Origin: a candidate division CPR2 bacterium GW2011_GWC2_39_35
GTDB taxonomy: Bacteria; Patescibacteriota; CPR2
Assembly: GCA_000995065.1 (NCBI GenBank)
Contig: LBWX01000003.1
Coordinates: 153,284-217,283 of the forward strand
DNA: 64,000 nt
Direction: 5' to 3'
Position 1 is the first letter of the stretch, and the number at the start of each line of letters is the position of its first letter. Made by a program: the position numbers and the translations under genes. The notes beneath the pieces are model-generated. The model was not told the origin of the DNA, did no database searches, and saw only the letters and a program-made list of their open reading frames with translations. Shown here in pieces: positions 31,630 through 54,957 of the stretch.

Positions 31630-33777
31630 CTAGCTTGGTAATTTAAAAACTTTCTTACCAACTAAAACGTAAATATTTCCGCTAGCATCGGAAGTAAGAC
31701 TGGTGATCCCCTTAAAGGATTCCGAGGTCATTTGTTTTACAAAATTACCGCTTTTGTCAAAAACTAAAATTTTAGAGCTTACTTCATCAAAAATATAGAT
31801 ATTGCTTAAAGATTCGGAGGTATAAATAAGCTTTGGTTTTTCCATCTTAGGAGAGCCTTTTAATGAAAAATCCTGTTTCTTACCAGTACTAAATTTACTT
31901 ACCTGGCCATCATTTAATAAAACGTAGATGCTGCTGTCTATAGTTAAGGAAATTCCATCTCGAAGACTCAAATTCTCCTGGAAATAAGGAGTCGGCTTTG
32001 TAAAGCCATCAACTATTCTTTGATGCTTATAAATCTGACCGTCATCACCTAAAACATAAATATTTGAATAATAAGCTATCATGTCCTTCGCCTTATACCA
32101 TTCTCCTACTGGGAGTGATTGTCTTTTTATTTCTTTCCCCGAAAAACCATAAACCATTGGCTCAGCAGTCATAAACACAATTGTACCATCTTCTAAAATA
32201 TCGGCGCCTAGAGTATCGGTCGAAGAGTTATCTGTAAATACCACATCTTTGCTTTGAATAGCTACTTTGCCAACCCCAGCTTCAGAAATTAGATAAAAAT
32301 TTTTGCTGCCGTAAACAATCTTATCAAACTGCTTATCAAGAGCGAGCATCTCTTCAGGATTTACTTTAACAATGCCGTCTATTTGATCTAAGATATCTTG
32401 GAGTTTTTGTCTTAAGGTTTTGATCTCTTCGGAAAATTGATCCTTAAACTTAGAATTTTCTACTTTTTCGATAGCCTCTCTGGCTTTATCTAGGTCCGCT
32501 TTACCACCGTTTTTATCTCCTGCAATAATTTTCGTTAAAGCATCATTTTCTTTTGCGGCAGCATCGCTTAGATATACTTGATAGATTTCGTTATTTTCCT
32601 CAGGCTGCTTTTTTTCTTTCGACAAGAAATTTGACCCAATAAATAAAAATGCAGCAATCCCGACTCCGTAAATTCCAATCTTTAAGTAATCCTTTTTGAT
32701 GTATTTAAGACCGGGTAAAAATCTTTTAAAAGAGATGTTTTTCTTGCGCATTTTAACAGACATAGGGAATACGGACGCCTGATTAGAATTACGATTTGTC
32801 GTCCTATTTCTAGCCATATGCTCTCTTTTTGCTTTGGCTTTTTCAGTCGCCTTACCGGCAACTTTAGCAATTTTTATTTTTACGTGACCAAATCTTTCCT
32901 TTATATTCTTTCCCATTTTTAAGGCATCTTTGGATTTATGAGCCACTTTGTCGATAAGTGGCGACGCACTTGTAACCACCGATTCGGTAACGTTTTTTGG
33001 TTCGTCTAACCAAAATTCGTCCTGAAAATCCAAAGTGTCATTGGCTAAAGCCTCCGGATCAGTAATCTCTAAAACCATAAAAGAAAGTCTATTCTGAGAC
33101 TTTACATCTTCTAAAATATTATAAAATGTATTTACAGCTACCGAAGGCGTATGCTGAATGAGCTCATTTTTTAACTCTTCCTTTGAGATATTGTAGTTAA
33201 GACTTGGGGTAAAAAAGACTAATTTGTCTCCTCTATCTACCGAGCCACTCGCAATATTTACAAATGTCTTTAGGGGATGAAGCGCCCCTTTTGGCGATAG
33301 TCCTTCGGTGATCTGAATAAAATTCTTTTTCCTAAGTAGATGGGCTTGGGCTCCGCCAGTTTGGGTCACATGAAGCTCTTTTTCTCTTAAAACTGCAATA
33401 ACAGCACTTAACTTTCCAAGCCACGCAATTTTTCCATCTTCTGCTGCCTCAACTAAGGCCTCGTTCACTCTCCCTAAAGCGTATTCAAAACGGGGCAGCG
33501 CTTCTTGCTTATTGCTTTCATAATAGGCTTCTTTGACTGAATCCAAAACAATCTCGGCAATAACTTTCGAGCTTTCTGCATTTCCCAAGATTTCAATGAC
33601 GCCAAAAATACTGCCTTTATCCTTGTTTGCCTCTTTGTCCGGATGATATTCATAAGCATAAGCAAACCCAGGGGCATTTTTCTTGTGAGCCGATTGAATT
33701 TTTATCGTCCTTAAAATCAATTTTCTTTTCACTTGAATATTTGCCTTTATCTTCAAGTTATGATACACAAATAACAC
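31630..33777 (-). CDS. membrane protein with N-terminal PP2C/PPM-like (possibly degenerate) domain, single TM, C-terminal beta-propeller (NHL/YVTN-like repeats)
   Basis: 715 aa; PPM-like blocks GSIFGVIEILGNAESS and TQTGGAQAHLLRK, TM IGIYGVGIAAFLFIG, repeated IYVL..DG..K motifs at C-terminus. Confidence 0.5.
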   Translation of the reverse strand: MLFVYHNLKIKANIQVKRKLILRTIKIQSAHKKNAPGFAYAYEYHPDKEANKDKGSIFGVIEILGNAESSKVIAEIVLDSVKEAYYESNKQEALPRFEYALGRVNEALVEAAEDGKIAWLGKLSAVIAVLREKELHVTQTGGAQAHLLRKKNFIQITEGLSPKGALHPLKTFVNIASGSVDRGDKLVFFTPSLNYNISKEELKNELIQHTPSVAVNTFYNILEDVKSQNRLSFMVLEITDPEALANDTLDFQDEFWLDEPKNVTESVVTSASPLIDKVAHKSKDALKMGKNIKERFGHVKIKIAKVAGKATEKAKAKREHMARNRTTNRNSNQASVFPMSVKMRKKNISFKRFLPGLKYIKKDYLKIGIYGVGIAAFLFIGSNFLSKEKKQPEENNEIYQVYLSDAAAKENDALTKIIAGDKNGGKADLDKAREAIEKVENSKFKDQFSEEIKTLRQKLQDILDQIDGIVKVNPEEMLALDKQFDKIVYGSKNFYLISEAGVGKVAIQSKDVVFTDNSSTDTLGADILEDGTIVFMTAEPMVYGFSGKEIKRQSLPVGEWYKAKDMIAYYSNIYVLGDDGQIYKHQRIVDGFTKPTPYFQENLSLRDGISLTIDSSIYVLLNDGQVSKFSTGKKQDFSLKGSPKMEKPKLIYTSESLSNIYIFDEVSSKILVFDKSGNFVKQMTSESFKGITSLTSDASGNIYVLVGKKVFKLPS

Positions 33778-34928: not shown

Positions 34929-36353
34929 ATGAACCATAAGGCTTTGGAAAAATCATCATTTAAGCTAGGCAAACTTTTAACTTACTTTTTTATTGCATGC
35001 ATAACGGTTATTACGGCTATGCTTCTTTATTTATCTTTTTTTAAACCCCTCGAACAAGACGAGGGTGTTTTTTTGACTATTGCCAATGGGATTGTAGAAG
35101 GAAAATCCCCATACCAAGATTATTTTGATCACAAGCCTCCCGGCATTTATTTTCTTTTAGCTTCAGCAGTCTATTTGTCAGAGAATACTGCTCTTATGGC
35201 AAAAGGGATCCTCTTTTTCTTTAACTTTATCTCGTCGTTTTTAATCTTTAAAATTGCGAATGAGTACAAAAAAGGTTCTGGTTTTTTGGCTTCAGTTCTT
35301 TTTTTGTTTAGTGCTACTTTTTTTGAAACAAATCATATTATCGCCGAACCTTTTATGGTTACCTTCTTGCTCTTAGCTTTCTTGCTTATGCTTGAATGGA
35401 CGAACAAAAATGAACGCAAATACCTTGTTGGATCCGGATTGATGGTTGGACTTGCCGTTCTATTTAAACAAACCGCAATTGTCAATTTATTTATCTTTAT
35501 CCCATTTATTTACTTTGCAAAGAAAAAAATTTCTGATCTTGGCTATTTTATTTTTGGTACTATTATCGTTTGTTTTCCTTTTCTAATTTATCTCTTGAGT
35601 AAAAAAGTTGTTCAAGAAGCCATAAATCAGATTATTACCGTTAATTTTACTAGCTATCCCAAAGAAAACATGTCTATGGTATTTAATAACTTGGCGCCTC
35701 CTTTTAAAAAAACACTACCAATTTGGATCCTTTTTCTGGCCTTTGTCTTTTCTAAAGGGAAAAATATTGATCAAAAAAAATTGCTTCTTATTATTTCGGC
35801 TCTTGCACCAATGCCGTTTCTCTTAGTCCGTCATTATCCTCATTATTGGTTGCAAATAATGCCTTTTATAGCTATTGCAGCAGCCATCAGTCTAGATAGC
35901 CTCATTGGGTTTAAATCATCAAAAACATGGTTAAACTTGTTTAGGGTAGCAGTGCTTTCGATTATTGCTTTAAGTTTTTTTACCAATTTTAAGTGGTTTT
36001 ATTGGATGGCGAAAAACGTAGACCAACCAAAGCTAAAAGCAGAAAAAGAGGCCGCCAAAATGTTAAAGGAATTACCGCAAAAAAACATCCTTGCCGAAAA
36101 CCAATTCACCGGTTTTTATCTCCTCTCCGAAAAAGAAGCTCTAACTAAATATCTTTATATTACTGAAGTGAATGAAAAAGAAGCTGCCGAAGAAAAAACG
36201 ATTGAAATCCTAAAAAACAATAAGGATACAATAATTGTGTGGCCCAAGGACTTAAAATATACCTATGCCAAAAAGTTGCAAAACTACATTATCCAGCATT
36301 ACCAGCCTAAAAAAGAATTTTCGCAGTTGGGAATGATTATATACCAAAATTAG
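34929..36353 (+). CDS. GT-C fold membrane glycosyltransferase (ArnT/PMT family 39-like)
   Basis: 474 aa, >10 TM segments; N-terminal loop with DE motif (EQDEG) typical of GT-C enzymes. Confidence 0.6.
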   Translation: MNHKALEKSSFKLGKLLTYFFIACITVITAMLLYLSFFKPLEQDEGVFLTIANGIVEGKSPYQDYFDHKPPGIYFLLASAVYLSENTALMAKGILFFFNFISSFLIFKIANEYKKGSGFLASVLFLFSATFFETNHIIAEPFMVTFLLLAFLLMLEWTNKNERKYLVGSGLMVGLAVLFKQTAIVNLFIFIPFIYFAKKKISDLGYFIFGTIIVCFPFLIYLLSKKVVQEAINQIITVNFTSYPKENMSMVFNNLAPPFKKTLPIWILFLAFVFSKGKNIDQKKLLLIISALAPMPFLLVRHYPHYWLQIMPFIAIAAAISLDSLIGFKSSKTWLNLFRVAVLSIIALSFFTNFKWFYWMAKNVDQPKLKAEKEAAKMLKELPQKNILAENQFTGFYLLSEKEALTKYLYITEVNEKEAAEEKTIEILKNNKDTIIVWPKDLKYTYAKKLQNYIIQHYQPKKEFSQLGMIIYQN

Positions 36354-36364
36354 AGATTCAGCAT

Positions 36365-38446
36365 TTACCTTACCACTATCCCCGTGTTTCCAAACCAGCT
36401 CCACTTGGCCGCAAACGTATTAACATCAAAAGTTTTTGACGGATAACCATAACCAGAGTCATTTACCACAAAAGATGTCGGATTCTGAACCGTTCCGGTA
36501 AAGCCTTTTACAACCTGAACATGCATCGAGTTCACCGCCCTTATCGCTCGCCCGTTATTTTGCCACGTAACTTCGTAAGCCGGCCAAACGCCATTTACCC
36601 ACCATATAATAATCGGGTTTCCGTTGGCAATTTCCTGGGCAATTCCCTGAACTGTCCAACTTTGTTTTACTTCGACAGTCCGGTATTTAGACAAAGCCTT
36701 GGCTACCGGGTCCCAATGCGATCCATAACCCCAGCCCGGAGCTGTATTGCCGTCGATATCCCCCACAAAAGCGGCATTTGGGTCGCCCCAAGTAGCGTTA
36801 GCATCTCGCCAAGTTCCCGACCAAGTTGTCGGATCGTAACCCATCAGACCAACAAATTCTAGCTCGCCCACAGAAAGGCCCCGGTAGGAAAGTGCGTCTC
36901 TGGCAGCCGCCGCCATGCACGTATAAAGATGACTCTGCCTGTAAGAAGGAATGTTTAAAACAATAGATTGCTCCTTCGTTGTAAAAATTGCGCTAAATGC
37001 CTGAATTGAATCTAAACCATAAACTGCTTTTACGCCGGAACCAATAGATACCGCATAATTTTGACTGTATAAAAAACCACCATGCGAAAACACCATCGTA
37101 TTTCCATTCCAGCTAAAGCTTCCGTCTACTTTTGGCGTTAAAGCAAAACTGTCTTCGGCTGATTTATGATCCACCGCCTGATTAAAAGTAATTGAGATTT
37201 TAGTTCCGATGTCGACATTCCGAGCGCTATTTGCCGGATAAAAACCGGAGACAGTAACATAACCGATTGTAGTAAATGAATAAGAAAGACCGCTCTCAAA
37301 TAAGCTTTCATCGGCCGCCTTAGCCTCTTTAGAAATAGAAACAGTGTATTGGGTATTCTTTTCCAATGGGTTTTTGGGTAGAAACTTTAGAAGCCGATTC
37401 CCTTCCCAGCTAAAACCGCCATCCGCTTTCGGGGTCAAGCTAAAAGCTTTCTCCGTAGCTTCCTTATTCATGTCTTGTTTAAATTCGACTTGAATGTTGC
37501 TATTTGCCAAAACACCGCTACCGGTTGGCGAGTAAGAACTAACACCGGGCGCATCAATGGTTCTAAAAGAACTCTTACCTACTTCTTGTTTCTCGCTTAA
37601 AACACGAGTTTTTTTAGTATTATAATTATATACCGTAAGCGTCCTTAAAACCGTCAATGTATAATCTGTTCCTTTGGACAAATTTGACTTTGGCTTAAGG
37701 ATATATTTGAGGCCATCCTCCGCTACTTCTAGTTCTGCTGGCGGGCTTAATTCGAAAGAAAACTGAGCCAACTCATTATGAGACACATCTGTTAAGATAA
37801 CAATCTCCTGTTTTGGCAGTACCCCTTGAACACCGTTTGCTGGCTCTACAGCGGTAACTTTAGGTATGGGAGAAGTGAGAAAACTAAATAAATAATTCTC
37901 TTTTTTAACTCCGACAATATTTCTGATTTCTGTTAAAGACACTGTGTACCTTGTCTCCATTTCCGGGGTTTCTATCGGAATAAAACTTAAAGCACTTGAT
38001 CCGCTGTAAAGGTTAGTCTTAAAGTTCCAATTTCCTCCAAGCTCCGGACTGATCGAATATTTAAGATTTTCTTTACGAATAGGGCGATCAAAATTGATCA
38101 CTAATGGCTTGTCCTTAGTCACTTCTGTAACACCTAGAGCAGGTTCGCTTGGAAAAACTACCTTAGGTTGAGGCACTACAATACCAGCAACTAAGCCCGC
38201 AAACCCCAGAAAAAGCCCGATATTAATATATAATTTCACGTTAACCAAAAGATAAAGAAAAATACGAAGAAAATATTTAACGCGGTACAAAAGGCTAAAG
38301 TTGGCATCAAGCTCCGGCTTTTTAATCTGCTTTAACCAATTTAATAAAAGTAAAGCATTATAAATAACCATAAGAGACATAATAATAAGAAGAGAAATTT
38401 TTAGAAAGTTGGGGTTTAACAAAAATTTAAATAACTCTTTTAGCAT
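36365..38446 (-). CDS. exported protein with tandem Ig-like (SbsA-type) domains and C-terminal C39-like papain-fold cysteine peptidase domain
   Basis: 693 aa; N-terminal TM, repeated TPKADGGFSWEGN / TPKVDGSFSWNGN modules, C-terminal QSHLYTCMAAAARDAL ... HVQVVKG Cys/His arrangement. Confidence 0.55.
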   Translation of the reverse strand: MLKELFKFLLNPNFLKISLLIIMSLMVIYNALLLLNWLKQIKKPELDANFSLLYRVKYFLRIFLYLLVNVKLYINIGLFLGFAGLVAGIVVPQPKVVFPSEPALGVTEVTKDKPLVINFDRPIRKENLKYSISPELGGNWNFKTNLYSGSSALSFIPIETPEMETRYTVSLTEIRNIVGVKKENYLFSFLTSPIPKVTAVEPANGVQGVLPKQEIVILTDVSHNELAQFSFELSPPAELEVAEDGLKYILKPKSNLSKGTDYTLTVLRTLTVYNYNTKKTRVLSEKQEVGKSSFRTIDAPGVSSYSPTGSGVLANSNIQVEFKQDMNKEATEKAFSLTPKADGGFSWEGNRLLKFLPKNPLEKNTQYTVSISKEAKAADESLFESGLSYSFTTIGYVTVSGFYPANSARNVDIGTKISITFNQAVDHKSAEDSFALTPKVDGSFSWNGNTMVFSHGGFLYSQNYAVSIGSGVKAVYGLDSIQAFSAIFTTKEQSIVLNIPSYRQSHLYTCMAAAARDALSYRGLSVGELEFVGLMGYDPTTWSGTWRDANATWGDPNAAFVGDIDGNTAPGWGYGSHWDPVAKALSKYRTVEVKQSWTVQGIAQEIANGNPIIIWWVNGVWPAYEVTWQNNGRAIRAVNSMHVQVVKGFTGTVQNPTSFVVNDSGYGYPSKTFDVNTFAAKWSWFGNTGIVVR

Positions 38447-38447
38447 T

Positions 38448-41357
38448 TTAATTCTCTTTAAGCCAATCGTTATAAATGTCCCTTAAGGTCACATAAATAA
38501 CCGGGCCCAAATCCTTTTCGTACTTAAACTGATCAACATGGTTAAAGACCTCGTTTACCTTATCCTGCTCGGCACGGTTAAACCAATGCGGATGAGAAAG
38601 ATAAGTCACTTGTTTTTTATCTGTTAAGATTCCCCCCTTATAGTTTTCATCAAAACGGCTTATCATGTCTTTGGCCGAAAACCAATAAGAATCAGCCCCG
38701 TTATTCGGAACTTCCCAAACATCTAAAGCATCGTCAGATGTTTTATTTTGATCCGTTCTAGACGGCTTATAAGGCGCAGCTGTTTTAGACAAATTCCAAG
38801 GCCCCTTCTCGCTATAAAAGCTGTAAGATGTTCTCCCCGAACTATCCAACTTGATTCCTACTTTTTCTAATGACTTTAGAGTTTCTTCGTTAGCAAACCA
38901 GCCGCCAGCTCTAAAAGAGACTGGTTTCAAGAGACCTTTTTTCTCAAACCACCAAAGCGCTCGCTCCAAGATTTTAACCATCTCGGCTTCGTTGTAATTA
39001 GACGTAAGGGAACCGTAACCGTCACCACTGTCACCCCAATTTGGAGAATTTTTCGGTACCACTCCCGCATCTTTTATAAAATCATAATACATATGAAGAT
39101 GCAGTCCGACTTCCTCATCCTTAACCTTTTCTCTTTGTTTTACCCAATCGGTCAGATAATCCTGCCGATCCTGAGGCATAGACGAAACATAAATTCTTGG
39201 ATTAAAAAGATGGGTCATTGATAATCCGTGGTTATCGGCAATATTGGCCATAGCATTTAAATACACTTGGGAAACATCAATACCTTCCCAATCCTGAGTC
39301 CAAGTAACGTATAACGGATAAGAAACATAAAAACCATGTTTTTGACTTTTGTAGGTCTGGCCTCCGTCCTTAATAGTAGCCTGAATTTGATATTGGCCAG
39401 GTTTTAGGTCGCCAACATCAATAACGCCTTCCAAGATGTTGGCATCGCTCTTTTCTAAGCTTCCTTCTATCTCTGTTTTTAAAACCTCTACTTTTGTCTG
39501 AGGATCGGTAAGTTCGCTTGCCGTTTTTACCGAAACATTTAGAGTGCTGACGCCCGCAACTTTATCCGATTTTAAAATCCACAACCGATCGGTTTCAAGA
39601 ATTGTTGGATAGTGAGCCTCGTCGCCAACCGCAGTTTCGTAACCATAACGCCATTCACCCGCCATATTGCTGGCTGGTACATCTTTTGAAACCGCATTGC
39701 CGTAATAAAGATAAAGGTCTTTTATCTCTTGGCCGGCCGGAATGGATTTCGGATTCTTAAATTTTATGGTCGTATTACTTAAATTCCAACCATTTTGAAG
39801 GGAAAATTCAGCCTCCTCAAAGCTTCCGCCATTCCAAAACACAATACGAACATCTTTCCCGTTAGGCAAAGATTTTTTTTCTTTTACTAATTTTTGATGA
39901 TCAAGCGAAAATTTTAGGATTTGCCCTTTTGTAATGTCGCTAAAAGATTCTTTGTTTTTTACTATAAGCGGCCGATTAAAGGCATATTCGTCGCTCCACC
40001 AACCTGTAATTTGAGCCGACTTAACAGACTCCCTAACCTCTTCCATCGCACTAGGTACAACCATAAAAGAAACGAGTAATAAAATAAGAGATGCAAATAG
40101 AGCGTGCCTTTTTTTAATGAGGCGTTTTTTCTTTAGCGAACCATCCGACTTTAGAAAAAAGAAATTTTTTAAGTGTTTTATCTCTAACTTTGACTCTTTA
40201 TAAACCTCTTCACCAAGCCTATAGATAGCCTCGCTTTTTACTGCATCTTCCTGGTCTTCGCGAGAACCTTTTATAAAGTTTAAGGTGAATTTAAAGTTAA
40301 ATGGAATAAAAGTAGCGAGGGCCAGAGACAAAACAATCGTTAGAGCAAAAAGAAAAATAAATATTACAACCGAGCCAACCTTTGTGCCACCCGACATCTC
40401 ATATAATTGCAACAAAAAAATATGGGTCCAAAATAAAGCATAAGAATTTTGACCCAAGACCAAAAGAAAGTCACGAAGAATCGGAATTTTTTTTAATTGT
40501 GCGGTTTTATATAACAAAACGCTTGCAAAAAAAGTAAACAAAATACCGGTCAGCAAGAATGGAATTGAAGGCGGCCATCTTAGCGAGAAAAGACTTAGAT
40601 TCTTGGTAAGCCCAAAACTTAAGACAGCAATTGCCGCGGCTAGCAATCCAAAAAAAACTAAAAACTTTTTTAAAATCTGTTCTTTTTTAGAGAGAATATC
40701 AGCTGTTATCAATCTGTAGCCCCAGCTGATTCCTAAAATAAAAATAGGGAAATATTGAAAGATTGGGAAACGGTAATAACCGGGATGACCGACAAAAAAC
40801 GCTTTCCACGGCACTAAAAACTGAAACATCGGCAGCCTAAAAAGCGTGGTGCCTGCGAAATAAAAACAAGCCGAAATGGCAAACGCTAAAGGAATGGATC
40901 TCGCCATTTCTTTAAAATATTTGGGGAAAAAAGCGATGAGAAACGAGAATAGTATGAACGGCGGAATGTATTCCGTGTAAGAAGGAAGGGTTCTAAAAGT
41001 TAATATATTTAAAATAACTCCCCACTTCCAAAGACCATAAGAAGTTAGGATTTGTCCGGCCATTACAAAAAAAGCTAAAACATAATAGGAGACCAGAAGC
41101 ATTGTAAGCCTTTTTATAATGCGCTTCTTATCTAGATGCCAGCTTTCTTCATCTCTAAAATAAACAATATAAGAAACCGCGCCCGAGATTAAAAGAAAGG
41201 CCACAAAGCAAACAGTATTGCCAATTTTTTCTAAGGAAAGTAAAAATGGGCTTGTTGAATTATGAAAAAAATACACGGTATGAGCTAGAATCATTAATAG
41301 AACCGCTATCCCCCTTAGCAAGTCAAACAGAAAAAACCTTCTACCAGATTGGCTCAT
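38448..41357 (-). CDS. acyltransferase-3 (OafA-like) polytopic membrane domain fused to large extracytoplasmic C-terminal domain (possible carbohydrate esterase/deacetylase-like)
   Basis: 969 aa; N-terminal FDLLRGIAVLLMILAH signature of acyltransferase family 3, ~11 TM, ~530-aa C-terminal soluble domain with HLHMYYD / RAGGWF / HPHWF blocks. Confidence 0.55.
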   Translation of the reverse strand: MSQSGRRFFLFDLLRGIAVLLMILAHTVYFFHNSTSPFLLSLEKIGNTVCFVAFLLISGAVSYIVYFRDEESWHLDKKRIIKRLTMLLVSYYVLAFFVMAGQILTSYGLWKWGVILNILTFRTLPSYTEYIPPFILFSFLIAFFPKYFKEMARSIPLAFAISACFYFAGTTLFRLPMFQFLVPWKAFFVGHPGYYRFPIFQYFPIFILGISWGYRLITADILSKKEQILKKFLVFFGLLAAAIAVLSFGLTKNLSLFSLRWPPSIPFLLTGILFTFFASVLLYKTAQLKKIPILRDFLLVLGQNSYALFWTHIFLLQLYEMSGGTKVGSVVIFIFLFALTIVLSLALATFIPFNFKFTLNFIKGSREDQEDAVKSEAIYRLGEEVYKESKLEIKHLKNFFFLKSDGSLKKKRLIKKRHALFASLILLLVSFMVVPSAMEEVRESVKSAQITGWWSDEYAFNRPLIVKNKESFSDITKGQILKFSLDHQKLVKEKKSLPNGKDVRIVFWNGGSFEEAEFSLQNGWNLSNTTIKFKNPKSIPAGQEIKDLYLYYGNAVSKDVPASNMAGEWRYGYETAVGDEAHYPTILETDRLWILKSDKVAGVSTLNVSVKTASELTDPQTKVEVLKTEIEGSLEKSDANILEGVIDVGDLKPGQYQIQATIKDGGQTYKSQKHGFYVSYPLYVTWTQDWEGIDVSQVYLNAMANIADNHGLSMTHLFNPRIYVSSMPQDRQDYLTDWVKQREKVKDEEVGLHLHMYYDFIKDAGVVPKNSPNWGDSGDGYGSLTSNYNEAEMVKILERALWWFEKKGLLKPVSFRAGGWFANEETLKSLEKVGIKLDSSGRTSYSFYSEKGPWNLSKTAAPYKPSRTDQNKTSDDALDVWEVPNNGADSYWFSAKDMISRFDENYKGGILTDKKQVTYLSHPHWFNRAEQDKVNEVFNHVDQFKYEKDLGPVIYVTLRDIYNDWLKEN

Positions 41358-41421
41358 TTATACTTGCCCTCCTAGCTACGATCATTTATTATTATACACA
41401 TAATCATACAGAAGCGAAACC

Positions 41422-42351
41422 ATGACAACTAACCTAATATCAATAGTCTCCCCCGTTTTTAATGAGCAGGAAGTTATTCAAGATTTTCTAAAAGAAACTC
41501 AAGAAAACTTAAAAAAAGATTCATATGAAATTATTCTTATTGATGACGGTTCCACAGACAATACTCCAGATATTTTAAAAGCCATTGTCGTCCAAAATCC
41601 CAAAATTAAAGCTATCCGCTTTACCCGAAACTTTGGCCAGCAAGCGGCAATCATGGCCGGACTCCGGATGGCCAATGGAAAAGCAATTATCGTGATGGAC
41701 TCTGACCTCCAAGACCCGCCTCAATATATTCCTCAACTAATTAAAAAATGGGAAGAAGGCTACAAAATTGTTTATGCCAAAAGACTTAAAAGGCGCGATT
41801 CTTTTTTAAAAAAATTCACTGCCTCAATTTTTTATAAGCTGCTTCATTTTCTAACCGATACTAAAATGCCAAAAAATACCGGCGATTTTTACCTCTTGGA
41901 CAGAAAAGTGGTAAACGAGCTTAAGCAGCTTCCCGAAAAGTTTCTTTATTTTAGAGGTCTTACAGGCTGGCTCGGATTTAAGCAATCAGAAATCGAAATA
42001 ATTCGACCTAAAAGAATGAAGGGAACAACCGGATATACTCTTAAAAAAATGATGCGCCTAGCAACAGACAGCTTGCTTTCCTTTTCCAATAAGCCCTTAA
42101 GAGCCATCACCTACCTCGGTATGATTGTTTTGATGACTGGCATAGTTTTAGGCTTGGCTCTTTTATTTAAAGCTTCTTTATTTAAAGAACAGACCTTATC
42201 TCCCATATTGCTTGTAACAATCATTATTCTTAGCGGCCTAAACCTCATCTCTTTAGGGATCATCAGCGAATATTTAAGCCGGATTTTTTTCCAAACCCAA
42301 GACCGGCCTCTTTATGTAATCGAAGAAACTTATGGTTTTAAAAAAGAGTAG
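41422..42351 (+). CDS. family 2 glycosyltransferase (polyprenyl-phosphate sugar synthase, DPM1/ArnC-like) with C-terminal TM helices
   Basis: 309 aa; ISIVSPVFNE, IILIDDGSTD, DSDLQD motifs; two C-terminal TM. Confidence 0.8.
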   Translation: MTTNLISIVSPVFNEQEVIQDFLKETQENLKKDSYEIILIDDGSTDNTPDILKAIVVQNPKIKAIRFTRNFGQQAAIMAGLRMANGKAIIVMDSDLQDPPQYIPQLIKKWEEGYKIVYAKRLKRRDSFLKKFTASIFYKLLHFLTDTKMPKNTGDFYLLDRKVVNELKQLPEKFLYFRGLTGWLGFKQSEIEIIRPKRMKGTTGYTLKKMMRLATDSLLSFSNKPLRAITYLGMIVLMTGIVLGLALLFKASLFKEQTLSPILLVTIIILSGLNLISLGIISEYLSRIFFQTQDRPLYVIEETYGFKKE

Positions 42352-43621
42352 AAAAGTTGGTATTATTGGCAGCGGTATCGCCGGCCTTGCTTGCGGCTAT
42401 TTTCTCTTAAAAGAAGGTTTTGAGGTTGTAATCTATGAAAAAGACCAAGAGCTTGGCGGGCTCCTTAAAACGACTACAACCCAAAAGAATGTTAGAATAG
42501 AAAAGTTTTATCATCATTTTTTTAAAACCGACACTGAACTTTTAGAATTAATAAAAGATATTGGACTAAACCCTAAGGTCATCTGGCAAAAAAGCACTGT
42601 TAGCTTTTACCGTAATCATCAATTCTCCAACTTAAATACTCCCCTAGACTTACTAAAACTGCCTTTTATATCTTTTACTTCAAGGTTAAGATTCGGCATC
42701 GCAACCTTAATCCTTAAACACGCTACCAATCTAAACAGATATGAGAGCATGACGGCTAAGGAACTCGTCAGTAGATGTTTTGGTAAAGATATTTGGGACA
42801 AAATTTGGTCTCCTTTGTTTGAAGGCAAGTTTGGAATATATAACGACAAAATTGGCGCCGCCTGGCTCTGGTCAAGAATTAAAACTCGAACTAGTTCCAG
42901 AAGAAACGGCAAAGAAACCCTGGGTTATATTAAAGGAAGCCTTTGGGAACTAGTGAGTGCCCTCAAGGAAAATATTAACAATAAAGGCGGCAAGATAATT
43001 ACCGGCAAAGAAATAAAAAGTATTCGTTCGTTAAAAGATAAGTTGATTATAGGAAACGAAGAGTTTGATTTTATAATAAGCACAATTCCCCTTAACGACT
43101 TCATAAAAATCGCTCCCCTTACTACCAAAGAAAAGGTTAGGCTCGGAGAAATTTCTTACCTCGGAGCTATCTCTACCTTAATCGAGTTAAAATCAAAACA
43201 AACAAATTATTATTGGAACAACGTCTTAGACTCTAAAATTCCCTTTAAAGGCATCATCGAGCACACAAATCTTGTAAGCCCCGAGGAATACAAAAATAGT
43301 CATCTACTCTATCTTAGCCATTATTTACCAAATAATTCTGCCTTCTTTAAGTCTAACGATAAAGAAATTAAAAATACTTATCTTAACTATCTGGAAGAAA
43401 TCATTCCAAACATCCGCAAAGTAGTAATTAGCATCCAAGTATTTAAAGAGAGTAATGCTCAACCGGTAATTTATAGTAATTTTAGACCGCTACATAATTC
43501 CACGTCTTTAAAAAACCTCTTTATGACGAGCATGGCGCATACTTATCCATTCGACCGGGGAATGAATGAAGCCATAAAAGAAGCAAAAAAAGTTGTAAGG
43601 CTAATAAATTCTGATAATTAA
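42332..43621 (+). CDS. FAD/NAD(P)-binding oxidoreductase (amine-oxidase / protoporphyrinogen-oxidase-like fold)
   Basis: 429 aa; N-terminal VGIIGSGIAGLACGYFL ... EKDQELGG dinucleotide-binding motif; overlaps GT2 gene by 20 nt. Confidence 0.65.
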   Translation: MVLKKSRKVGIIGSGIAGLACGYFLLKEGFEVVIYEKDQELGGLLKTTTTQKNVRIEKFYHHFFKTDTELLELIKDIGLNPKVIWQKSTVSFYRNHQFSNLNTPLDLLKLPFISFTSRLRFGIATLILKHATNLNRYESMTAKELVSRCFGKDIWDKIWSPLFEGKFGIYNDKIGAAWLWSRIKTRTSSRRNGKETLGYIKGSLWELVSALKENINNKGGKIITGKEIKSIRSLKDKLIIGNEEFDFIISTIPLNDFIKIAPLTTKEKVRLGEISYLGAISTLIELKSKQTNYYWNNVLDSKIPFKGIIEHTNLVSPEEYKNSHLLYLSHYLPNNSAFFKSNDKEIKNTYLNYLEEIIPNIRKVVISIQVFKESNAQPVIYSNFRPLHNSTSLKNLFMTSMAHTYPFDRGMNEAIKEAKKVVRLINSDN

Positions 43622-43690
43622 GGTGAGGTTGACTGTCTTCTTAATATCCAATATACTGTAAACGTTTACTAGTTAATAAGTGAGGGATCA

Positions 43691-43990
43691 ATGGAAGAAC
43701 AAAACGACCAATTAGAGAAAAAAGGCGGCTTTAAGAAGTATTGGTGGGTTGCCTTATCCGTGTTTTTTGTGGTAATCGGGATTTCGGGCATTATCTATTT
43801 AAGCCTAATGCAGTCCAGCGAAAAGACAGCAAACAAATCTGCCACACCAACTCCGACTCCAACTAAAACCGAGCTTCAGAAAATCGAAGAAGATGAAAAA
43901 GCAATCGATACGGAAATTGCCGGAGTCGAAAAAGATCTAAAAGAAATTAATGAAAGCGAAACATCACTCGATGATGTTCCGGCTATATAG
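43691..43990 (+). CDS. small hypothetical membrane-anchored protein
   Basis: 99 aa; one TM (WWVALSVFFVVIGISGIIYL), TPTPTPT linker. Confidence 0.4.
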   Translation: MEEQNDQLEKKGGFKKYWWVALSVFFVVIGISGIIYLSLMQSSEKTANKSATPTPTPTKTELQKIEEDEKAIDTEIAGVEKDLKEINESETSLDDVPAI

Positions 43991-43999
43991 GAGGATTAT

Positions 44000-44980
44000 A
44001 TGAAAAAAACACTTTATTCATTCCTAGTCTTAGCACTCCTTCTTCCATCAGTAATTTTTGCAAGAGAAGCTAATGGAGAAGAATCAGGGAAAAATACCCC
44101 GACTCCAAGAGTAACTACTACTACCACCGAAGACGAAGATGTAAACGAAACTACTACTACAGCAACCCCGACTCCATCAAAAACAACTACCCCAAAAGTT
44201 ACTCCAAAAACATCAAAAGAAAGCCTGGAAGATTCCCTAAAAGCTTATAAAGAAGCAAGCGAAGCTAAAAAGCTTGAAAAGCTTAAAACTTTCGGCACAA
44301 AAGCGGTTGATAACAGAATCAAAGAGTTAAATAACATCATCTCTCAGATCGAAAAAAATAAGATGTTGGAGAGTGCTGACAAGACAGAACTTAAGACCGA
44401 CATCCAAAAAGAAATCGCAACCCTAGAAGCCCTTAAGGAAGAAATCACCAGCGCAACAGATCTCGAAACCCTAAGAACCTTAATTAAAAAGATCTATACC
44501 GATCACAAAATCTACGCTGTCGTTAAACCAAAACAACTGGCTATTTTAGCAGCTGCAAGAACAAAAGGCGCCGTCAATAAATTAGAAAATTTGGAAAAAA
44601 GGCTAGAAAAACTGATAGATAAAGCAAAAGACGATGGCAAAGACACTACCGCCGTAGAAAGCTATGTTACCGATTTTAAAGCTAAAACCGAACAGGCAAA
44701 AAGCTTAATCGATAAAGCAAAAGCTACTTTTAAATCGATGCCGATAAATGACCCCGCAAAAGCCAAGGTTTTAAGGGAAGAAGGCAAAGGATACCTAACA
44801 CAAGCTAAAGATCTTCTAAAACAAGCAGGCACCGATTTAAAGAAAATTATCGCTGCTTTAAAAACAGAAAAAAAGTCCAGTAATAGTAACACAGACGATG
44901 ACGATGATACTACTCCATCGACAACGCCAACACCATCTGCTACCCCAACCTCAACACCTACTCCAACAACGACCGAATAA
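44000..44980 (+). CDS. secreted coiled-coil protein with Thr/Pro-rich N- and C-terminal linkers
   Basis: 326 aa; signal peptide LLLPSVIFA, TTTTED..TPTPSKTTTPK and C-terminal DDDDDTTPSTTPTPSATPTSTPTPTTTE. Confidence 0.5.
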   Translation: MKKTLYSFLVLALLLPSVIFAREANGEESGKNTPTPRVTTTTTEDEDVNETTTTATPTPSKTTTPKVTPKTSKESLEDSLKAYKEASEAKKLEKLKTFGTKAVDNRIKELNNIISQIEKNKMLESADKTELKTDIQKEIATLEALKEEITSATDLETLRTLIKKIYTDHKIYAVVKPKQLAILAAARTKGAVNKLENLEKRLEKLIDKAKDDGKDTTAVESYVTDFKAKTEQAKSLIDKAKATFKSMPINDPAKAKVLREEGKGYLTQAKDLLKQAGTDLKKIIAALKTEKKSSNSNTDDDDDTTPSTTPTPSATPTSTPTPTTTE

Positions 44981-45002
44981 TGATTGCACTAATAATTCTA
45001 AT

Positions 45003-45031
45003 AAAAACCGCCCAGCAAAGGGCGGTTTTTA
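45003..45031. terminator. rho-independent terminator aaaaaccgccc-agcaaa-gggcggttttt
   Basis: 6-bp GC stem flanked by A5 and T5 tracts. Confidence 0.8.
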
Positions 45032-45094
45032 TTTGCATATCATAAAATAAATTAACCCAATTGCCACCCTTTTCTAAAAGCAATAGAAAGTATC

Positions 45095-45187
45095 TTTTTT
45101 CGTCATTCCCGTGAAAACGGGAATCCGGGAAAGCTTGGGAAGGAATGGGGCATCTGGATTCCCACCTCCGCGGGAATGACGAAAAAG
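45095..45187. repeat. compound palindromic REP/MITE-like element (outer 17-nt perfect inverted arms tttttcgtcattcccg / cgggaatgacgaaaaa with internal hairpins)
   Basis: direct reading; core gtcattcccg / cgggaatgac shared with second copy at 60923-60983. Confidence 0.65.
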
Positions 45188-45286
45188 TGGGTGGTTCAGA
45201 TTTAAGACAGTACAGATTTGAATTTAAGTTTAAGCACTTGATTTTTTTAACCGATAGTTTCATTATATATATAGGAGGTAATTATT

Positions 45287-46181: not shown

Positions 46182-46577
46182 ATGGAGGGTATGCTCGCCA
46201 AAAGTTTAATATTGTCTCTTCTTAAATGGTGGTATTTTGAGTCGCCGAAACAATTTTTGACACTTGCCAAAATGATTGCCAGAAAAATAATGGATAGCCT
46301 TTCTATTTCGATTATTTTAAGGACATTCTTTAGCCCTTGGAAGAAAGTCACCTCTTATAAACATAATAATTCACTAGAAGAACGAGTAAGGGCATTGGAA
46401 GACAATGCTGTTTCGAGGCTCGTAGGAGTGGTTATGAGATCGGCAATCTTAATTCTGGCTGCTCTTTTTATAGTTTTTTACATAGTAACATTGATGCTTG
46501 GCTCGATTATTTGGATCATTTTTCCGACCTTGCCGATTGCTTTAGCATTTTATAGCCTGGGATTTATTATCTCATGA
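46182..46577 (+). CDS. hypothetical membrane protein, translationally coupled (ATGA overlap) to Clp-type ATPase gene
   Basis: 131 aa; C-terminal two TM helices; stop overlaps downstream start. Confidence 0.5.
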   Translation: MEGMLAKSLILSLLKWWYFESPKQFLTLAKMIARKIMDSLSISIILRTFFSPWKKVTSYKHNNSLEERVRALEDNAVSRLVGVVMRSAILILAALFIVFYIVTLMLGSIIWIIFPTLPIALAFYSLGFIIS

Positions 46578-49048
46578 ATGAATCCACTACTACAAAACAA
46601 ATAATCATTAATTTTAAAGACCCCATTTTCGCGCTTGCAAAAATCAATAAAAAGCTTGGCAGTCCCAGATTCAAGTCGATTTCTAATATTATTATAATAG
46701 TAGGCATCATTTTCTTTGCCCTAATAAATATCCTTAAGTTAAGCGATTTTTTGATGTTTTTTGCTATAAATCTGCTAGCTATAAGCACATTTCTTATTAA
46801 CCTAAAGCTTTATTTCGACCTAAAAATTAAAAACTATGTCCCAAAAATTGAGATTTCAGTTTTAGCTGAAAAGCAAAGTCTGGGGAATCAAATCGATATC
46901 AGTCCGGTTTTAAACTTCGAAGCCGCTTTGCTTCTAAAAACAAATTGGGGCAATACCTTGGAGTCAATCTTTTTAAAAATTTGTCAAACCAGAGAAGCAA
47001 GTTTTATTTTGTATAAAGCTGGTCTTAGCACCCAATATTTTTCGGGGCTAAAAATTGATGCTTCCATAGAGGAAATACTAAAAAGAGCCCTCGAATCGGC
47101 CGCAAAAAATAACCAGCGCTTTATTTATATTAGTGATTTATTCTGGGGATTTGCCTCATCTTCTAAGATAATTCAGGATACCTTCTATAAAGCCGAACTG
47201 GACACTAAAGACTTGGAAAACCTGATATTTTGGGAAAAGACCCTGATGGCCAGAACTGAAGCTAAGAGCTTGCTTGATCCGGAAAATTGGACCTCAACCG
47301 GCGGTATTGCTAAAGACTGGTCTTCGGGATACACAATTTATCTGGATCAGTTCGGCAAAGATTTAACCAGTATGGTGTCTGGCGGATGGCTTAACTTTTC
47401 GGTTGTCTCGAGAGAAAACCTAACTAGAGAGATGGAAACCGCCCTTTCTAAGCAGCACAGCCATTTAATTATGGTTGGCGAAGCCGGCGTTGGCAAAAGA
47501 GCGCTCGTTTTAGAATTTGCCAGGAAAGTGCTGCACGGCAAGACTTTAGATCATCTTAATTTTAAAAGAATAATCGAGATTGATACAGGGCTTCTGGTCG
47601 CCGGCGCTCACGATAATGAAGGCGAGATTGAAACCAGGCTACAATTAATTCTTAACGACGCGGTAAAAGCCGGGAATGTTATCATTTTTATCGACAATAT
47701 CCATTCTATTTTTATTAAAGATGGCTACGGAACAGCTAATCTTTCTCAAATCTTAATTCCCTATCTAGAATCGGGCCGGCTTCAGTTAATAGGCGCCACC
47801 AATCTCGAAAGCTGGCATAAGATAAGTGCCAATTCCAACATTTCTTCGTTATTTAATAAACTCGAGGTGCCGGAAACAGACAAAAATCAAACTTTAAAGA
47901 TCCTTCAGGACTTAAGCTTCAAATTCGAATATAAATATAAGATTGCTATTACTTATCAAGGCCTGAACGAAACTTACAACCTGGCAAAAAAATATATTCC
48001 TTATGAGTTCTTCCCGGCAAAAGCAATTGATCTTTTGGAAGAAGCTGCTATTTTCTGCCAGAATAAAAGATCAAATTACTTAACCCCGGAATTGTTAAAA
48101 GAAGTGGTTTCTAACAAAACAAGCATTCCTGTTTCCGAAGCAAATGATGACGAAAAGAATGTTTTATTACACTTAGAACAATTTTTGCATGAACGGATTG
48201 TAGGTCAAGACAAAGCTATAAAGACAGTTGCTAGCGCCTTAAGAAGAGCAAGAGCCGGCTTAAAGAACGATAATAGACCGGTAGCATCATTTTTGTTCTT
48301 GGGCCCTACAGGAGTCGGGAAAACGGAAACCTGCAAAGCCCTGGCTAAAGCCTACTTTGGATCCGAAAGAAACATGTTAAGGCTTGATATGTCGGAATAC
48401 CAAGAAGTTTCAGCTATTCATAAGCTTCTTGGCAGCGATCAAGAAGCTGGCGGATATCTAACCAAACCTATTAGGGAAAAACCTTTTACCTTAATTTTAT
48501 TAGATGAAGTCGAAAAAGCACATCCGGACATCTTAAACCTCTTTCTTCAGGTATTAGATGATGGCCGGATTACAGATAATTTGGAAAGAACAATCGACTT
48601 TACCCACGCTATCATCATTGCTACTTCGAACGCCGGTTCGGAGCTAATTAGAGAACATTTTATGAGTAGCAATGCCGATACTCACGAGTTCGGCAAAATC
48701 CTTATCGATAAACTCTTAAAAGATGGGATATTTAAACCGGAATTCTTGAACAGATTTGACGGCGTCATCACATTTACCCCTCTATCCAAAGAAGAAATAA
48801 ATGCAGTAGCCAGGCTTTTAATAAAAGGGATAGCAAGACAGCTCGACGAGAAAGGCATAGCCCTTAAGGTAACAGACGGGGCTATAAATAAACTTTCCGA
48901 ATTGGGTTTCGATCCGGCTTTTGGCGCCAGGCAGATGAGAAGAGTTGTCCAAGATAAACTAGAAGATTTTATAGCCGAAAAAATCCTCGGCGAATCTTTA
49001 GAAAGAGGCGATTCTATTACATTTGATGTTGAGGATATCAAGGGATAA
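46574..49048 (+). CDS. Clp/Hsp100-family double-AAA+ ATPase with N-terminal transmembrane segments; first ATPase domain degenerate
   Basis: 824 aa; 2 N-terminal TM, Clp_N-like repeats, D1 Walker A GEAGVGKR (T->R) and Walker B IIFIDNIH (E->N), intact D2 Walker A GPTGVGKT and Walker B LLDEVEKAH. Confidence 0.75.
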   Translation: MNESTTTKQIIINFKDPIFALAKINKKLGSPRFKSISNIIIIVGIIFFALINILKLSDFLMFFAINLLAISTFLINLKLYFDLKIKNYVPKIEISVLAEKQSLGNQIDISPVLNFEAALLLKTNWGNTLESIFLKICQTREASFILYKAGLSTQYFSGLKIDASIEEILKRALESAAKNNQRFIYISDLFWGFASSSKIIQDTFYKAELDTKDLENLIFWEKTLMARTEAKSLLDPENWTSTGGIAKDWSSGYTIYLDQFGKDLTSMVSGGWLNFSVVSRENLTREMETALSKQHSHLIMVGEAGVGKRALVLEFARKVLHGKTLDHLNFKRIIEIDTGLLVAGAHDNEGEIETRLQLILNDAVKAGNVIIFIDNIHSIFIKDGYGTANLSQILIPYLESGRLQLIGATNLESWHKISANSNISSLFNKLEVPETDKNQTLKILQDLSFKFEYKYKIAITYQGLNETYNLAKKYIPYEFFPAKAIDLLEEAAIFCQNKRSNYLTPELLKEVVSNKTSIPVSEANDDEKNVLLHLEQFLHERIVGQDKAIKTVASALRRARAGLKNDNRPVASFLFLGPTGVGKTETCKALAKAYFGSERNMLRLDMSEYQEVSAIHKLLGSDQEAGGYLTKPIREKPFTLILLDEVEKAHPDILNLFLQVLDDGRITDNLERTIDFTHAIIIATSNAGSELIREHFMSSNADTHEFGKILIDKLLKDGIFKPEFLNRFDGVITFTPLSKEEINAVARLLIKGIARQLDEKGIALKVTDGAINKLSELGFDPAFGARQMRRVVQDKLEDFIAEKILGESLERGDSITFDVEDIKG

Positions 49049-52052: not shown

Positions 52053-52058
52053 TTTTAT

Positions 52059-53033: not shown

Positions 53034-53119
53034 AAATATATTTTATCATTTTAAAGCTACCGCTGAAACCAAAAAAACGTAAACAACTTTTTTCGTTCAT
53101 CTTTCGCTACTTGTGTGCT

Positions 53120-53190
53120 TACATATTGTTCGACCTTGTGGAGAACTGCATTAAAGTACTTCTAGACCACGTTTCACTTCGCTCGCCATA
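53120..53190. repeat. dispersed intergenic repeat family, copy 3
   Basis: atattgttcgaccttgtggagaactgcattaaag...cgtttcacttcgctcg. Confidence 0.6.
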
Positions 53191-53912: not shown

Positions 53913-53913
53913 T

Positions 53914-54945: not shown

Positions 54946-54957
54946 ATTTTTCCTTTC

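Follow-up and report, generated by a model that had tools for sequence, protein, structure and literature searches.

What might seven adjoining genes for two glycosyltransferases, an acyltransferase, a flavoprotein, a peptidase and two further exported or membrane proteins do together, and on which acceptor would they act? This question is raised by a locus in candidate division CPR2 bacterium GW2011_GWC2_39_35, found at positions 34,929 to 44,980 of a 64,000-nucleotide stretch of contig LBWX01000003.1, the whole of which we call the window. The initial annotation, made from the sequence alone, had described a glycosylation system in which a lipid-linked sugar donor pathway serves a Thr/Pro-rich surface protein. 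All seven open reading frames (ORFs) that it had listed were recovered at the same coordinates and its domain calls proved essentially right. They encode a transferase of the GT-C class, an immunoglobulin (Ig)-like protein with a C-terminal C39_2 peptidase domain (IgC39), a transmembrane acyltransferase fused to a deacetylase-type domain (AT3-CE4 fusion), a polyprenyl-phosphate sugar synthase of the GT2 class, a flavoprotein of the PRK07233 family, a small membrane protein and a Thr/Pro-rich secreted protein. These are real genes and not chance ORFs, since many full-length homologues were found for each of the large proteins and their putative catalytic residues are invariant. The 969-residue AT3-CE4 fusion is 100% identical to an NCBI protein of "candidate division CPR2 bacterium". 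The reading that we prefer, and hold with moderate confidence, is that the locus is a conserved cassette of the CPR2/Berkelbacteria type which decorates and edits an envelope glycan at the outer face of the cytoplasmic membrane, with a wall glycopolymer as the shared substrate. The AT3-CE4 fusion, its Ig/C39_2 partner and the coupled PRK07233 flavoprotein are not described in the literature that we searched, where we also found no mention of PRK07233/NF005560, of envelope glycosylation in CPR2/Berkelbacteria or of clusters of a GT2 with an amine oxidase.

Gene order around the editing genes

Conservation of the gene order was followed in 38 loci from a genome-collection scan with the flavoprotein, in further loci obtained by look-ups of homologues of the AT3 fusion, of IgC39 and of GT2-flavoprotein fusions, and in 80 loci from a metagenome scan with the AT3-fusion alignment. 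The ORFs were annotated with hidden Markov models built from our own alignments, and 90 loci were collapsed to 67 groups at 90% identity. IgC39 was the next gene after AT3/CE4 in 47 of the 56 groups with at least 0.7 kb of downstream sequence. Where the acyltransferase and the CE4-type part are fused as in the window, 21 of the 24 groups with at least 4 kb downstream held IgC39 and 19 held the GT-C, the latter in both orientations and amid unrelated flanking genes. Upstream, the flavoprotein was present in 11 and a separate GT2 in nine of the 39 groups with at least 2.6 kb of sequence, and the Thr/Pro-rich protein in two of the 34 groups with at least 4.5 kb, both of them CPR2. Across a wider clade, separate adjacent genes encode the AT3 domain (about 330 residues, PF01757) and the part composed of a transmembrane (TM) helix, β-sandwich and CE4-like domain (about 450 residues). 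This split type was followed by IgC39 in 9/10 groups and by a GT-C in 1/10, and its neighbours, as identified with Pfam, include FtsW/RodA, a VanW-like protein, ABC exporters and a histidine kinase.

The cassette is layered. Its core consists of AT3, CE4 and IgC39, to which the GT-C is frequently attached; the arm of GT2 and flavoprotein occurs only in a CPR2/Berkelbacteria-like subclade, and the pair of small and Thr/Pro-rich genes only in CPR2. We regard the editing arm (AT3, CE4 and IgC39) as the evolutionary core. The synteny in relatives expected by the initial annotation was thus found for the GT-C, IgC39, the AT3 fusion, the GT2 and the flavoprotein, and not for the Thr/Pro-rich and small proteins. 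Likewise, its view of the locus as a glycosylation system stands as regards the conserved donor and transfer genes, but the centre of the locus lies in AT3, CE4 and IgC39, which are also found without an adjacent GT-C.

The split type was seen at loci L077, L085, L088, L090, L093, L099, L102 and L108. Another related protein (L113) joins a DUF2341 region to a CE4-like domain and carries a type IX secretion tail in the absence of AT3. A downstream gene in L093, L105 and L107 that had received our flavoprotein label turned out to encode an unrelated, HI0933-like flavoprotein.

Enzymes of the cassette

The enzyme classes and folds, the elements of membrane topology, the invariant residues, the conserved linkage and the fusion are direct observations. 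In the fusion protein an OafA-type acyltransferase with a large extracytoplasmic domain had been recognised, and this description holds: Acyl_transf_3 (PF01757) covers residues 11-348, a domain of ten TM helices that lies above the Pfam threshold and keeps the His/Arg motifs of TM1, and an extra, 11th TM helix (residues 420-438) is followed by about 530 residues outside the membrane. An AlphaFold model of the 969-residue protein built from 40 homologues (mean pLDDT, the model's per-residue confidence, 85.9, and above 90 in the C-terminal part) is composed of the ten-helix AT3 domain, a poorly ordered charged cytoplasmic linker, the 11th TM helix, two β-sandwich/Ig-like domains and a C-terminal α/β domain, a division that Foldseek supports. 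Fold comparison identified the C-terminal domain as a distorted (β/α) barrel of the CE4 fold. Its best match was HP0310, annotated as a putative peptidoglycan deacetylase, and both HP0310 and 3rxz outscored ArnD. Among 13 family members, seven match DUF2334 (best 4e-8) and six match Polysacc_deac_1 (best 0.0015); the related protein of L113 has a DUF2341 match of 2.4e-4, just under the cutoff. A profile of the CE4 domain gave no significant sequence match in the PDB, a PDB search with the whole fusion likewise gave nothing useful, and the fusion has no SGNH match in Pfam. Residues D689, E691, H753, H755, D759, R816 and H922 are invariant in the C-terminal domain, and this pattern makes the domain probably catalytic.

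The architecture resembles that of AT3-SGNH proteins (OafA/OafB, OatA, PglI) and HGSNAT, with a ten-TM AT3 domain bearing His/Arg motifs, an 11th TM helix and a C-terminal domain outside the membrane (PMC9558356), and the placement of the β-sandwich/CE4 part outside the membrane is presumed from this likeness to AT3-SGNH. The window protein differs in that it ends in a β-sandwich and a CE4 fold and not in SGNH. AT3-only, AT3-SGNH and AT3-alanine-racemase are the only architectures given in a 2022 review of the family (PMC9558356).

IgC39 combines four Big_5 Ig-like domains (1.1e-33) with a C-terminal Peptidase_C39_2 domain (PF13529, 2.5e-15; 57.7 bits, cutoff 24), in line with the initial domain assignment. 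The protein had also been called secreted, but two N-terminal hydrophobic segments (residues 17-35 and 73-91) indicate that it is anchored in the membrane and not freely released. Q504, C510, H642 and D663, a papain-like catalytic set, are invariant in 26 homologues. The domain is not of the bacteriocin C39 type linked to ABC exporters: there is no ABC transporter at the locus, and the C39 domain follows four Ig-like domains. A weak match to the Pilin family of Pfam was rejected as spurious, no stretch passing alone. Peptidase_C39_2 is reportedly mentioned in two endolysin surveys, an anecdotal hint towards the cell wall. NCBIfam provided no name for IgC39, the AT3 fusion, the GT-C or the Thr/Pro-rich protein. 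Paired acyl editors of a single polymer are known from other bacteria, namely IcaB (CE4) and IcaC (AT3) on poly-N-acetylglucosamine and PgdA (CE4) and OatA (AT3-SGNH) on peptidoglycan. As in those pairs, the CE4 and AT3 parts of the cassette are presumed to act on the same extracytoplasmic polymer containing N-acetylhexosamine (HexNAc); in contrast to them, the two parts are fused or encoded by adjacent genes, the Ig-like/C39_2 peptidase comes next, and a processive synthase like IcaA is absent.

The GT-C matches PMT_2 (PF13231) at 45.1 bits (cutoff 26.1). It has nine TM-like segments and a C-terminal domain of about 120 residues outside the membrane, and at 474 residues it lacks a large internal loop domain. 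While a single-sequence search of the PDB was uninformative, a profile of eight orthologues had a sole significant match among solved structures, ArnT (5ezm, E=1.1e-12, positions 12-339). D44-E45, located right after TM1 in the first outside loop, aligns to the 'DEG' motif of ArnT and K69-P-P71 to its 'KPP' motif; the residues invariant across the orthologues are D44, E45, K69, P71, K180, Y306 and P312. In Pfam there was no match to PF02366, MIR or YfhO, and none to the solved Pmt1 or Pmt2 structures at E<=1. Judged by its sequence, the GT-C is ArnT/PMT_2-like and not a PMT (GT39). The protein therefore did not fall into a family unrelated to the one first assigned, PMT_2 being above its cutoff and ArnT its structural match, but the PMT-like O-mannosylation that had been thought plausible is not supported, as ArnT gave the only matches. 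For S-layer-type glycosylation, the other system then considered, no evidence was found. From its linkage to a GtrB-like GT2, and from this only, we infer that the GT-C uses a polyprenyl-phosphate-linked sugar donor.

The GT2 matches Glycos_transf_2 (2e-36, 125.9 bits) and aligns over its full length with GtrB (5ekp, 2.9e-73, residues 5-306) and ArnC (9hwj, 1.4e-43, residues 5-302), and a TM hairpin is present at its C-terminus (residues 231-249 and 262-280). The NCBIfam equivalogs stayed below their cutoffs (PgfS, the best, 256.5 against 500 bits; ArnC 173.4 against 529; PpgS 33.9 against 370), which does not fix the sugar. GT2 and GT-C form a classic pairing for glycosylation outside the membrane. 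That the locus encodes such a pair, as was first suggested, is borne out by the matches to GtrB (3e-73) and ArnT (1e-12) and by the invariant D44/E45. By analogy, this arm would work like the known systems that glycosylate outside the membrane. Three-component systems of a GT2, a flippase and a GT-C include Gtr O-antigen glucosylation, CsbB/YfhO, GtlA/GtlB teichoic-acid glycosylation, GtrB/PgtC2 and PgfS/PgfM1, in which PgtC2 and PgfM1 are YfhO proteins (PMC12041528). The locus shares with them a full-length GtrB homologue with its TM hairpin, a GT-C with an invariant acidic motif that is linked in relatives, and possible S/T/P-rich acceptors encoded next door, as in the Streptococcus mutans pgf cluster. 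It differs from them in that the GT-C is ArnT/PMT_2-like and not of the YfhO or GtrC type, a GtrA-like flippase was not found, a flavoprotein is coupled to the GT2 (and fused to it in a relative), and the AT3-CE4 fusion and Ig/C39 peptidase are absent from the known systems.

The flavoprotein matches Amino_oxidase (1.6e-25) and NF005560/PRK07233 (408.2 bits, cutoff 252), a family that NCBI names "hypothetical protein"; its orthologues in L043 (398 bits) and L024 (343 bits) also pass the cutoff. Its structural model (pLDDT 95.6) has a two-domain fold binding flavin adenine dinucleotide (FAD) like that of phytoene desaturase (PDS) and protoporphyrinogen oxidase (PPOX). The top Foldseek match is the rice phytoene desaturase (5mog, 4e-28, TM-score 0.83), followed by protoporphyrinogen oxidases and, lower, by UDP-galactopyranose mutases (UGM; TM-score 0.77), and the sequence profile ranks them alike; identity to PDS and PPOX is about 15%. 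Membership in the UGM family was considered and rejected: TIGR00031 was not among the 25 best NCBIfam families listed, and the UGM matches in the PDB reached only E~3e-4 and concerned the N-terminal part. With PDS, PPOX and UGM the protein shares the two-domain FAD fold. DprE1, a flavoenzyme that remodels a polyprenyl-phosphate-linked sugar, has a different fold and is a functional analogue. The family is spread over the candidate phyla radiation (CPR), Margulis/Saganbacteria, Bacteroidota, Chloroflexota, Planctomycetota, ANME, Archaeoglobi and Methanomicrobia.

What the flavoprotein acts on may be approached through its neighbours. A GT2 lies within 5 kb of it in 21 of the 38 genome loci, which represent many bacterial and archaeal phyla, and PMT_2 GT-Cs (11 loci; seven archaeal, four bacterial), DUF2298 proteins (six) and UbiE-like methyltransferases (seven) are also encoded nearby. 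The two proteins are fused in three protein clusters (P0047, P0048 and P0051), and in L048 such a GT2-flavoprotein fusion stands divergently beside the AT3-CE4 gene, mirroring the two separate genes of the window. In L040 the slot of the flavoprotein is taken by a genuine UGM (TIGR00031 at 429 bits, cutoff 304), encoded upstream of the GT2, of IgC39 and of an AT3-CE4 protein 43% identical to that of the window, and overlapping the GT2 start by 4 nt. We regard this as a displacement by a non-orthologous enzyme; the window protein, unlike that of L040, is not a member of TIGR00031. The exchange suggests a galactofuranose-containing product in the L040 organism and, further, that the sugar donor is the target of the PRK07233 protein as well; UGM is therefore kept as a functional analogy for this protein. 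The replacement in L040 (8071-9998) comprises both genes of the arm, in that the UGM and a short GT2 (238 residues, no TM hairpin) stand in place of PRK07233 and the GtrB-like GT2, upstream of AT3-CE4, IgC39 and the GT-C. At L042 (7932-9184) an intact GT2 adjoins a flavoprotein gene broken into two ORFs of 186 and 187 residues, which is either a frameshift pseudogene or the result of an assembly error.

Saturation of the polyprenyl carrier (α-saturation) is a possible but less favoured role for the flavoprotein. The PDS-like fold and the archaeal distribution of the family speak for it, as does the fact that the archaeal α-reductase is stated to be unknown (PMC5088576). On the other side stand the replacement by a sugar mutase in L040, the frequency of the family in bacteria with unsaturated carriers, and a pocket whose invariant residues are polar or aromatic.

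The proposed pathway and its acceptor

The order of steps, the identity of the sugar, the reaction of the flavoprotein and the acceptor are inferred in the following scheme. On the cytoplasmic face of the membrane the GT2 would use a nucleotide sugar to charge polyprenyl phosphate with a sugar, and the translationally coupled PRK07233 flavoprotein would remodel this same donor as a mutase or oxidase. Once flipped across the membrane, the donor would be used by the ArnT-like GT-C, which would pass the sugar to an acceptor outside. The AT3 domain would receive an acyl group from acyl-CoA in the cytoplasm and carry it through the membrane. On the outside, the fused CE4-type domain would take off an N- or O-linked acyl group, and the co-translated, membrane-anchored IgC39 would cut or transfer a peptide on the same substrate. 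This shared substrate is most likely a cell-wall glycopolymer, either peptidoglycan or a polymer attached to it. We judge a wall glycopolymer a more likely acceptor than the neighbouring Thr/Pro-rich protein because the editing arm is also seen where the GT-C or the Thr/Pro-rich protein is lacking, and because its folds match peptidoglycan and polysaccharide deacetylases, acyltransferases of the OatA/HGSNAT type and a peptidase family that is said to occur in phage endolysins.

Several points weigh against a wall-directed cassette of this kind. The CE4-like domain of the window is below every Pfam threshold and its His spacing is H-x-H, where canonical CE4 enzymes have H-x-x-x-H; a binding module or a different catalytic activity is therefore conceivable. 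The fusion of an acyltransferase with a deacylase seems contradictory, except if the two work on different positions or acyl groups. No flippase gene was recognised in the locus, including one for a GtrA-like flippase, and none of the computations pinpointed an acceptor. A carotenoid desaturase as the best structural match of the flavoprotein would also fit an action on the polyprenyl chain. Peptidoglycan genes that recur near related loci (SLT, MurJ, YkuD with M23, a giant M23/M14 protein, LytR_cpsA_psr, Amidase_2 with YceG, and FtsW) hint at the cell wall in an anecdotal way. Finally, the Thr/Pro-rich tails encoded next door resemble proven O-glycosylation sites (PMC12041528).

This last point leads to protein O-glycosylation, an explanation that we consider unlikely. 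Here the GT2 would make a polyprenyl-phosphate sugar for O-glycosylation by the GT-C, the targets being Ser/Thr of Thr/Pro-rich tails in secreted or membrane-bound proteins, among them the adjacent ones of 326 and 99 residues. The glycan on the protein would be edited by the AT3-CE4 fusion and the glycoproteins processed by the C39 peptidase, in a logic likened to that of streptococcal GtrB/PgtC2 and PgfS/PgfM1 or of actinobacterial Ppm1/PMT. Both adjoining genes indeed encode exported proteins with TPTPTP tracts. The small protein has one TM helix (residues 20-38) and a TPTPTPT linker, with a TIGR04561 score of 28.5 bits that is below the cutoff of 30. The Thr/Pro-rich protein begins with a sequence like a signal peptide, is rich in T and P at both ends, and contains a DDDDD run as well as a helical core. 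No other ORF of the window reaches 60% T+P over 20 residues; matches of the protein to the Mucin and New_glue families of Pfam were set aside as compositional. The other CPR2 genome, L039, has the pair in the corresponding location, and the ORF at the position of the small protein there is similar in size and composition and has no detectable sequence match to it. The helical core (residues 71-290; 44210-44869) has no match among Pfam families, and its relatives typically consist of a signal peptide, a variable S/T/P-rich linker, the core of about 200 residues and often an S/T/P-rich tail. Streptococcal GT2 and GT-C pairs glycosylate such disordered regions, the pgf cluster of S. mutans encodes adhesin substrates (PMC12041528), AT3 enzymes such as PglI acetylate protein-linked glycans (PMC9558356), and the best NCBIfam match of the GT2 (256 bits) is PgfS.

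The distribution of the genes points the other way. A tblastn search with the Thr/Pro-rich protein found a homologue only in L039, at the same position, and none in 47 other loci, which agrees with its presence beside the cassette in 2/34 groups. Its gene has a promoter-like site and a terminator of its own, and the family of its helical core (1,944 representative clusters at E<=1e-3, 467 at E<=1e-10) is far broader than the cassette, for which the protein search gave about 40 clusters each for the AT3-fusion and IgC39 families against about 1,900 for the core. Moreover, the GT-C belongs to neither the YfhO nor the PMT family and the core of AT3, CE4 and IgC39 exists without it. The small and Thr/Pro-rich genes do behave as an independent unit of lineage-specific neighbours, and the role of acceptor partner first given to the Thr/Pro-rich protein is not upheld. 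The idea of protein glycosylation thus has a real precedent by analogy with the streptococcal tails (PMC12041528), but its tie to this cassette is unsupported by gene distribution, and the Thr/Pro-rich protein is a possible but unproven glycosylation acceptor.

Decoration with an amino sugar appears to us more improbable still. In this explanation the GT2 links HexNAc, or a different N-acyl amino sugar, to polyprenyl phosphate, the CE4 domain strips the N-acyl group from this donor, and the GT-C puts the cationic amino sugar on an anionic envelope polymer and so alters the surface charge. The Arn and NaxD pathways run in this order, GT2, then CE4, then GT-C. The locus resembles the Arn system (ArnC, ArnD, ArnT), Francisella FlmF2/NaxD/FlmK and mycobacterial PpgS/Rv3779 in having an ArnC-like GT2, a CE4 domain of ArnD-like fold and an ArnT-like GT-C, and the GT2s of the window and of L040 show weak matches to PpgS, a polyprenyl-phosphate-GalNAc synthase. 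In contrast to these systems, the locus has no genes for a UDP-sugar formyl- or aminotransferase, its CE4 domain differs from ArnD and NaxD in being extracytoplasmic and joined to an acyltransferase, and lipid A cannot be assumed as the acceptor; to our knowledge, there is no lipopolysaccharide context in CPR envelopes. Since CE4, AT3 and IgC39 occur without an adjacent GT-C or GT2 in 10 split-type groups, the substrate of the CE4 domain cannot be the product of the GT2 only. HP0310 and 3rxz, the folds that surpass ArnD, are not enzymes of lipid-linked sugars, and the explanation does not account for the flavoprotein and the peptidase.

The weakest explanation is mere adjacency of up to four unrelated units (tryptophanyl-tRNA synthetase (TrpRS) with GT-C, AT3 with IgC39, GT2 with flavoprotein, and small with Thr/Pro-rich gene), which would agree with the use of both strands, at least three transcription units, uninformative promoter and terminator scans, housekeeping flanks and the independent behaviour of the last pair, but which is very improbable and, for five genes, largely refuted by the synteny counts, with GT-C, IgC39 and AT3-CE4 kept adjacent in 19/24 fused-type groups despite differing flanks and a flipped GT-C, and the GT2 and/or flavoprotein directly upstream in 11/39 groups and fused together beside AT3 in L048.

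Surroundings and meaning of the cassette

The G+C content of the window is 36-42%, and the window is dense in housekeeping genes, among them an AddA-like helicase, TrpRS, a ClpB-like ATPase, glycolysis genes and alanine racemase; such genes also flank the cassette. The features of the cassette are collected in Table 1. The seven genes are divided between the two strands and make up at least three transcription units. Intergenic gaps are 5 nt from TrpRS to the GT-C, 1 nt from AT3 to IgC39 and 9 nt from the small to the Thr/Pro-rich gene, and the GT2 and flavoprotein genes overlap by 20 nt.

Table 1. Genes, domains and transcription signals of the cassette, in positions of the window.
Feature	Position	Strand	Size or remark
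GT-C, ArnT/PMT_2-like	34929..36353	+	474 aa
Ig-like/C39_2 peptidase protein (IgC39)	36365..38446	-	693 aa
AT3-CE4 fusion protein	38448..41357	-	969 aa
AT3 transmembrane domain (aa 1-350 of the fusion)	40308..41357	-	
11th TM helix and β-sandwich/Ig-like domains of the fusion (aa ~455-680)	39318..40100	-	
CE4-type domain (polysaccharide/peptidoglycan deacetylase type, ArnD-like; aa ~681-969 of the fusion)	38451..39317	-	
GT2 polyprenyl-phosphate sugar synthase, GtrB/ArnC/PgfS type	41422..42351	+	309 aa
FAD-dependent oxidoreductase, PRK07233 family, cytoplasmic	42332..43621	+	429 aa
Promoter-like site TTGACT-17-TATACT, gap between flavoprotein and small-protein genes	43629..43657	+	10/12 consensus positions; weak
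Small single-pass membrane protein	43691..43990	+	99 aa
Thr/Pro-rich secreted helical protein	44000..44980	+	326 aa
Intrinsic terminator hairpin directly 3' of the Thr/Pro-rich gene	45003..45033	+	

A scan of the window for promoters and terminators gave counts no different from those of shuffled sequences. A ribosome-binding site and the promoter-like site precede the small gene, the latter to be read against a scan that was overall not enriched over shuffles. The terminator behind the Thr/Pro-rich gene was overlooked by the scan, spotted by eye and confirmed by folding; it reads AAAAACCGCCC-AGCAAA-GGGCGGTTTTT, has a ΔG of -22.6 kcal/mol (z = -6.3 against shuffles) and is bidirectional. Further into the gap after this gene lies a palindromic element of about 80 bp (45101-45181) with inverted arms like CGTCATTCCCG...GGGAATC, of which the window holds a sole copy (0 expected by chance) and which gives rise to a spurious minus-strand ORF of 101 residues (44958-45263).

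Among the neighbouring genes, a double-AAA+ ATPase of the ClpB type (46182-49048, 824 residues) has N-terminal TM-like segments at residues ~36-77, and membrane anchoring is unusual for a ClpB-like protein. It is preceded by a gene for a small TM protein of 131 residues whose stop overlaps the start of the ATPase gene, and the pair is kept in L039 (54% and 46% identity). A protein of the ADP-forming acetyl-CoA synthetase type (CoA_binding, Succ_CoA_lig and ATP-grasp_5) is encoded at 2825-5023, and a homologous type directly adjoins the flavoprotein/AT3-CE4 cassette in L043 (6471-8555); the arrangement may be connected with the supply of acyl-CoA or may be fortuitous. Two histidine kinases of about 735 residues (HisKA and HATPase_c) are encoded at 49845-57171, some 9 kb downstream from the cassette, with an N-terminal sensor region of seven TM segments detected only in that of 54958-57171, and the gene of a trans-polyprenyl diphosphate synthase (53914-54945) stands between them. 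On the other side, an ORF of 715 residues (31630-33777) with one TM-like segment and no Pfam match occupies the same position in L039, in the interval between the AddA-like helicase and TrpRS (53% identity).

Bacteria of the CPR (Patescibacteria) are mostly uncultured episymbionts whose envelopes mediate attachment to the host and whose surface chemistry is almost unknown. The cassette defines testable activities for them: a GtrB-like synthase, an ArnT-like transferase, an AT3-CE4 fusion and an Ig/C39 peptidase. In addition, the PRK07233 family emerges as a widespread partner of polyprenyl-phosphate sugar synthases in bacteria and archaea. Its candidate reactions may be a pyranose-to-furanose mutation or the oxidation of a lipid-linked sugar, with α-saturation of the carrier as the alternative, and if donor remodelling is true, the family may be a fourth standard component of GT2/GT-C glycosylation systems. 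The editing module, for its part, may couple transmembrane acyl transfer, deacylation and peptide cleavage on one substrate. That PRK07233 is an unrecognised donor-remodelling enzyme at the polyprenyl-phosphate stage and that AT3, CE4 and Ig/C39_2 together form a new wall-editing machine of the CPR is a joint claim that we offer tentatively, holding it rather doubtful that both parts apply. If the flavoprotein does act on the lipid-linked donor, an extra step would be added to the textbook pathway, and an editing module active on peptidoglycan would reveal how the wall is altered in CPR bacteria.

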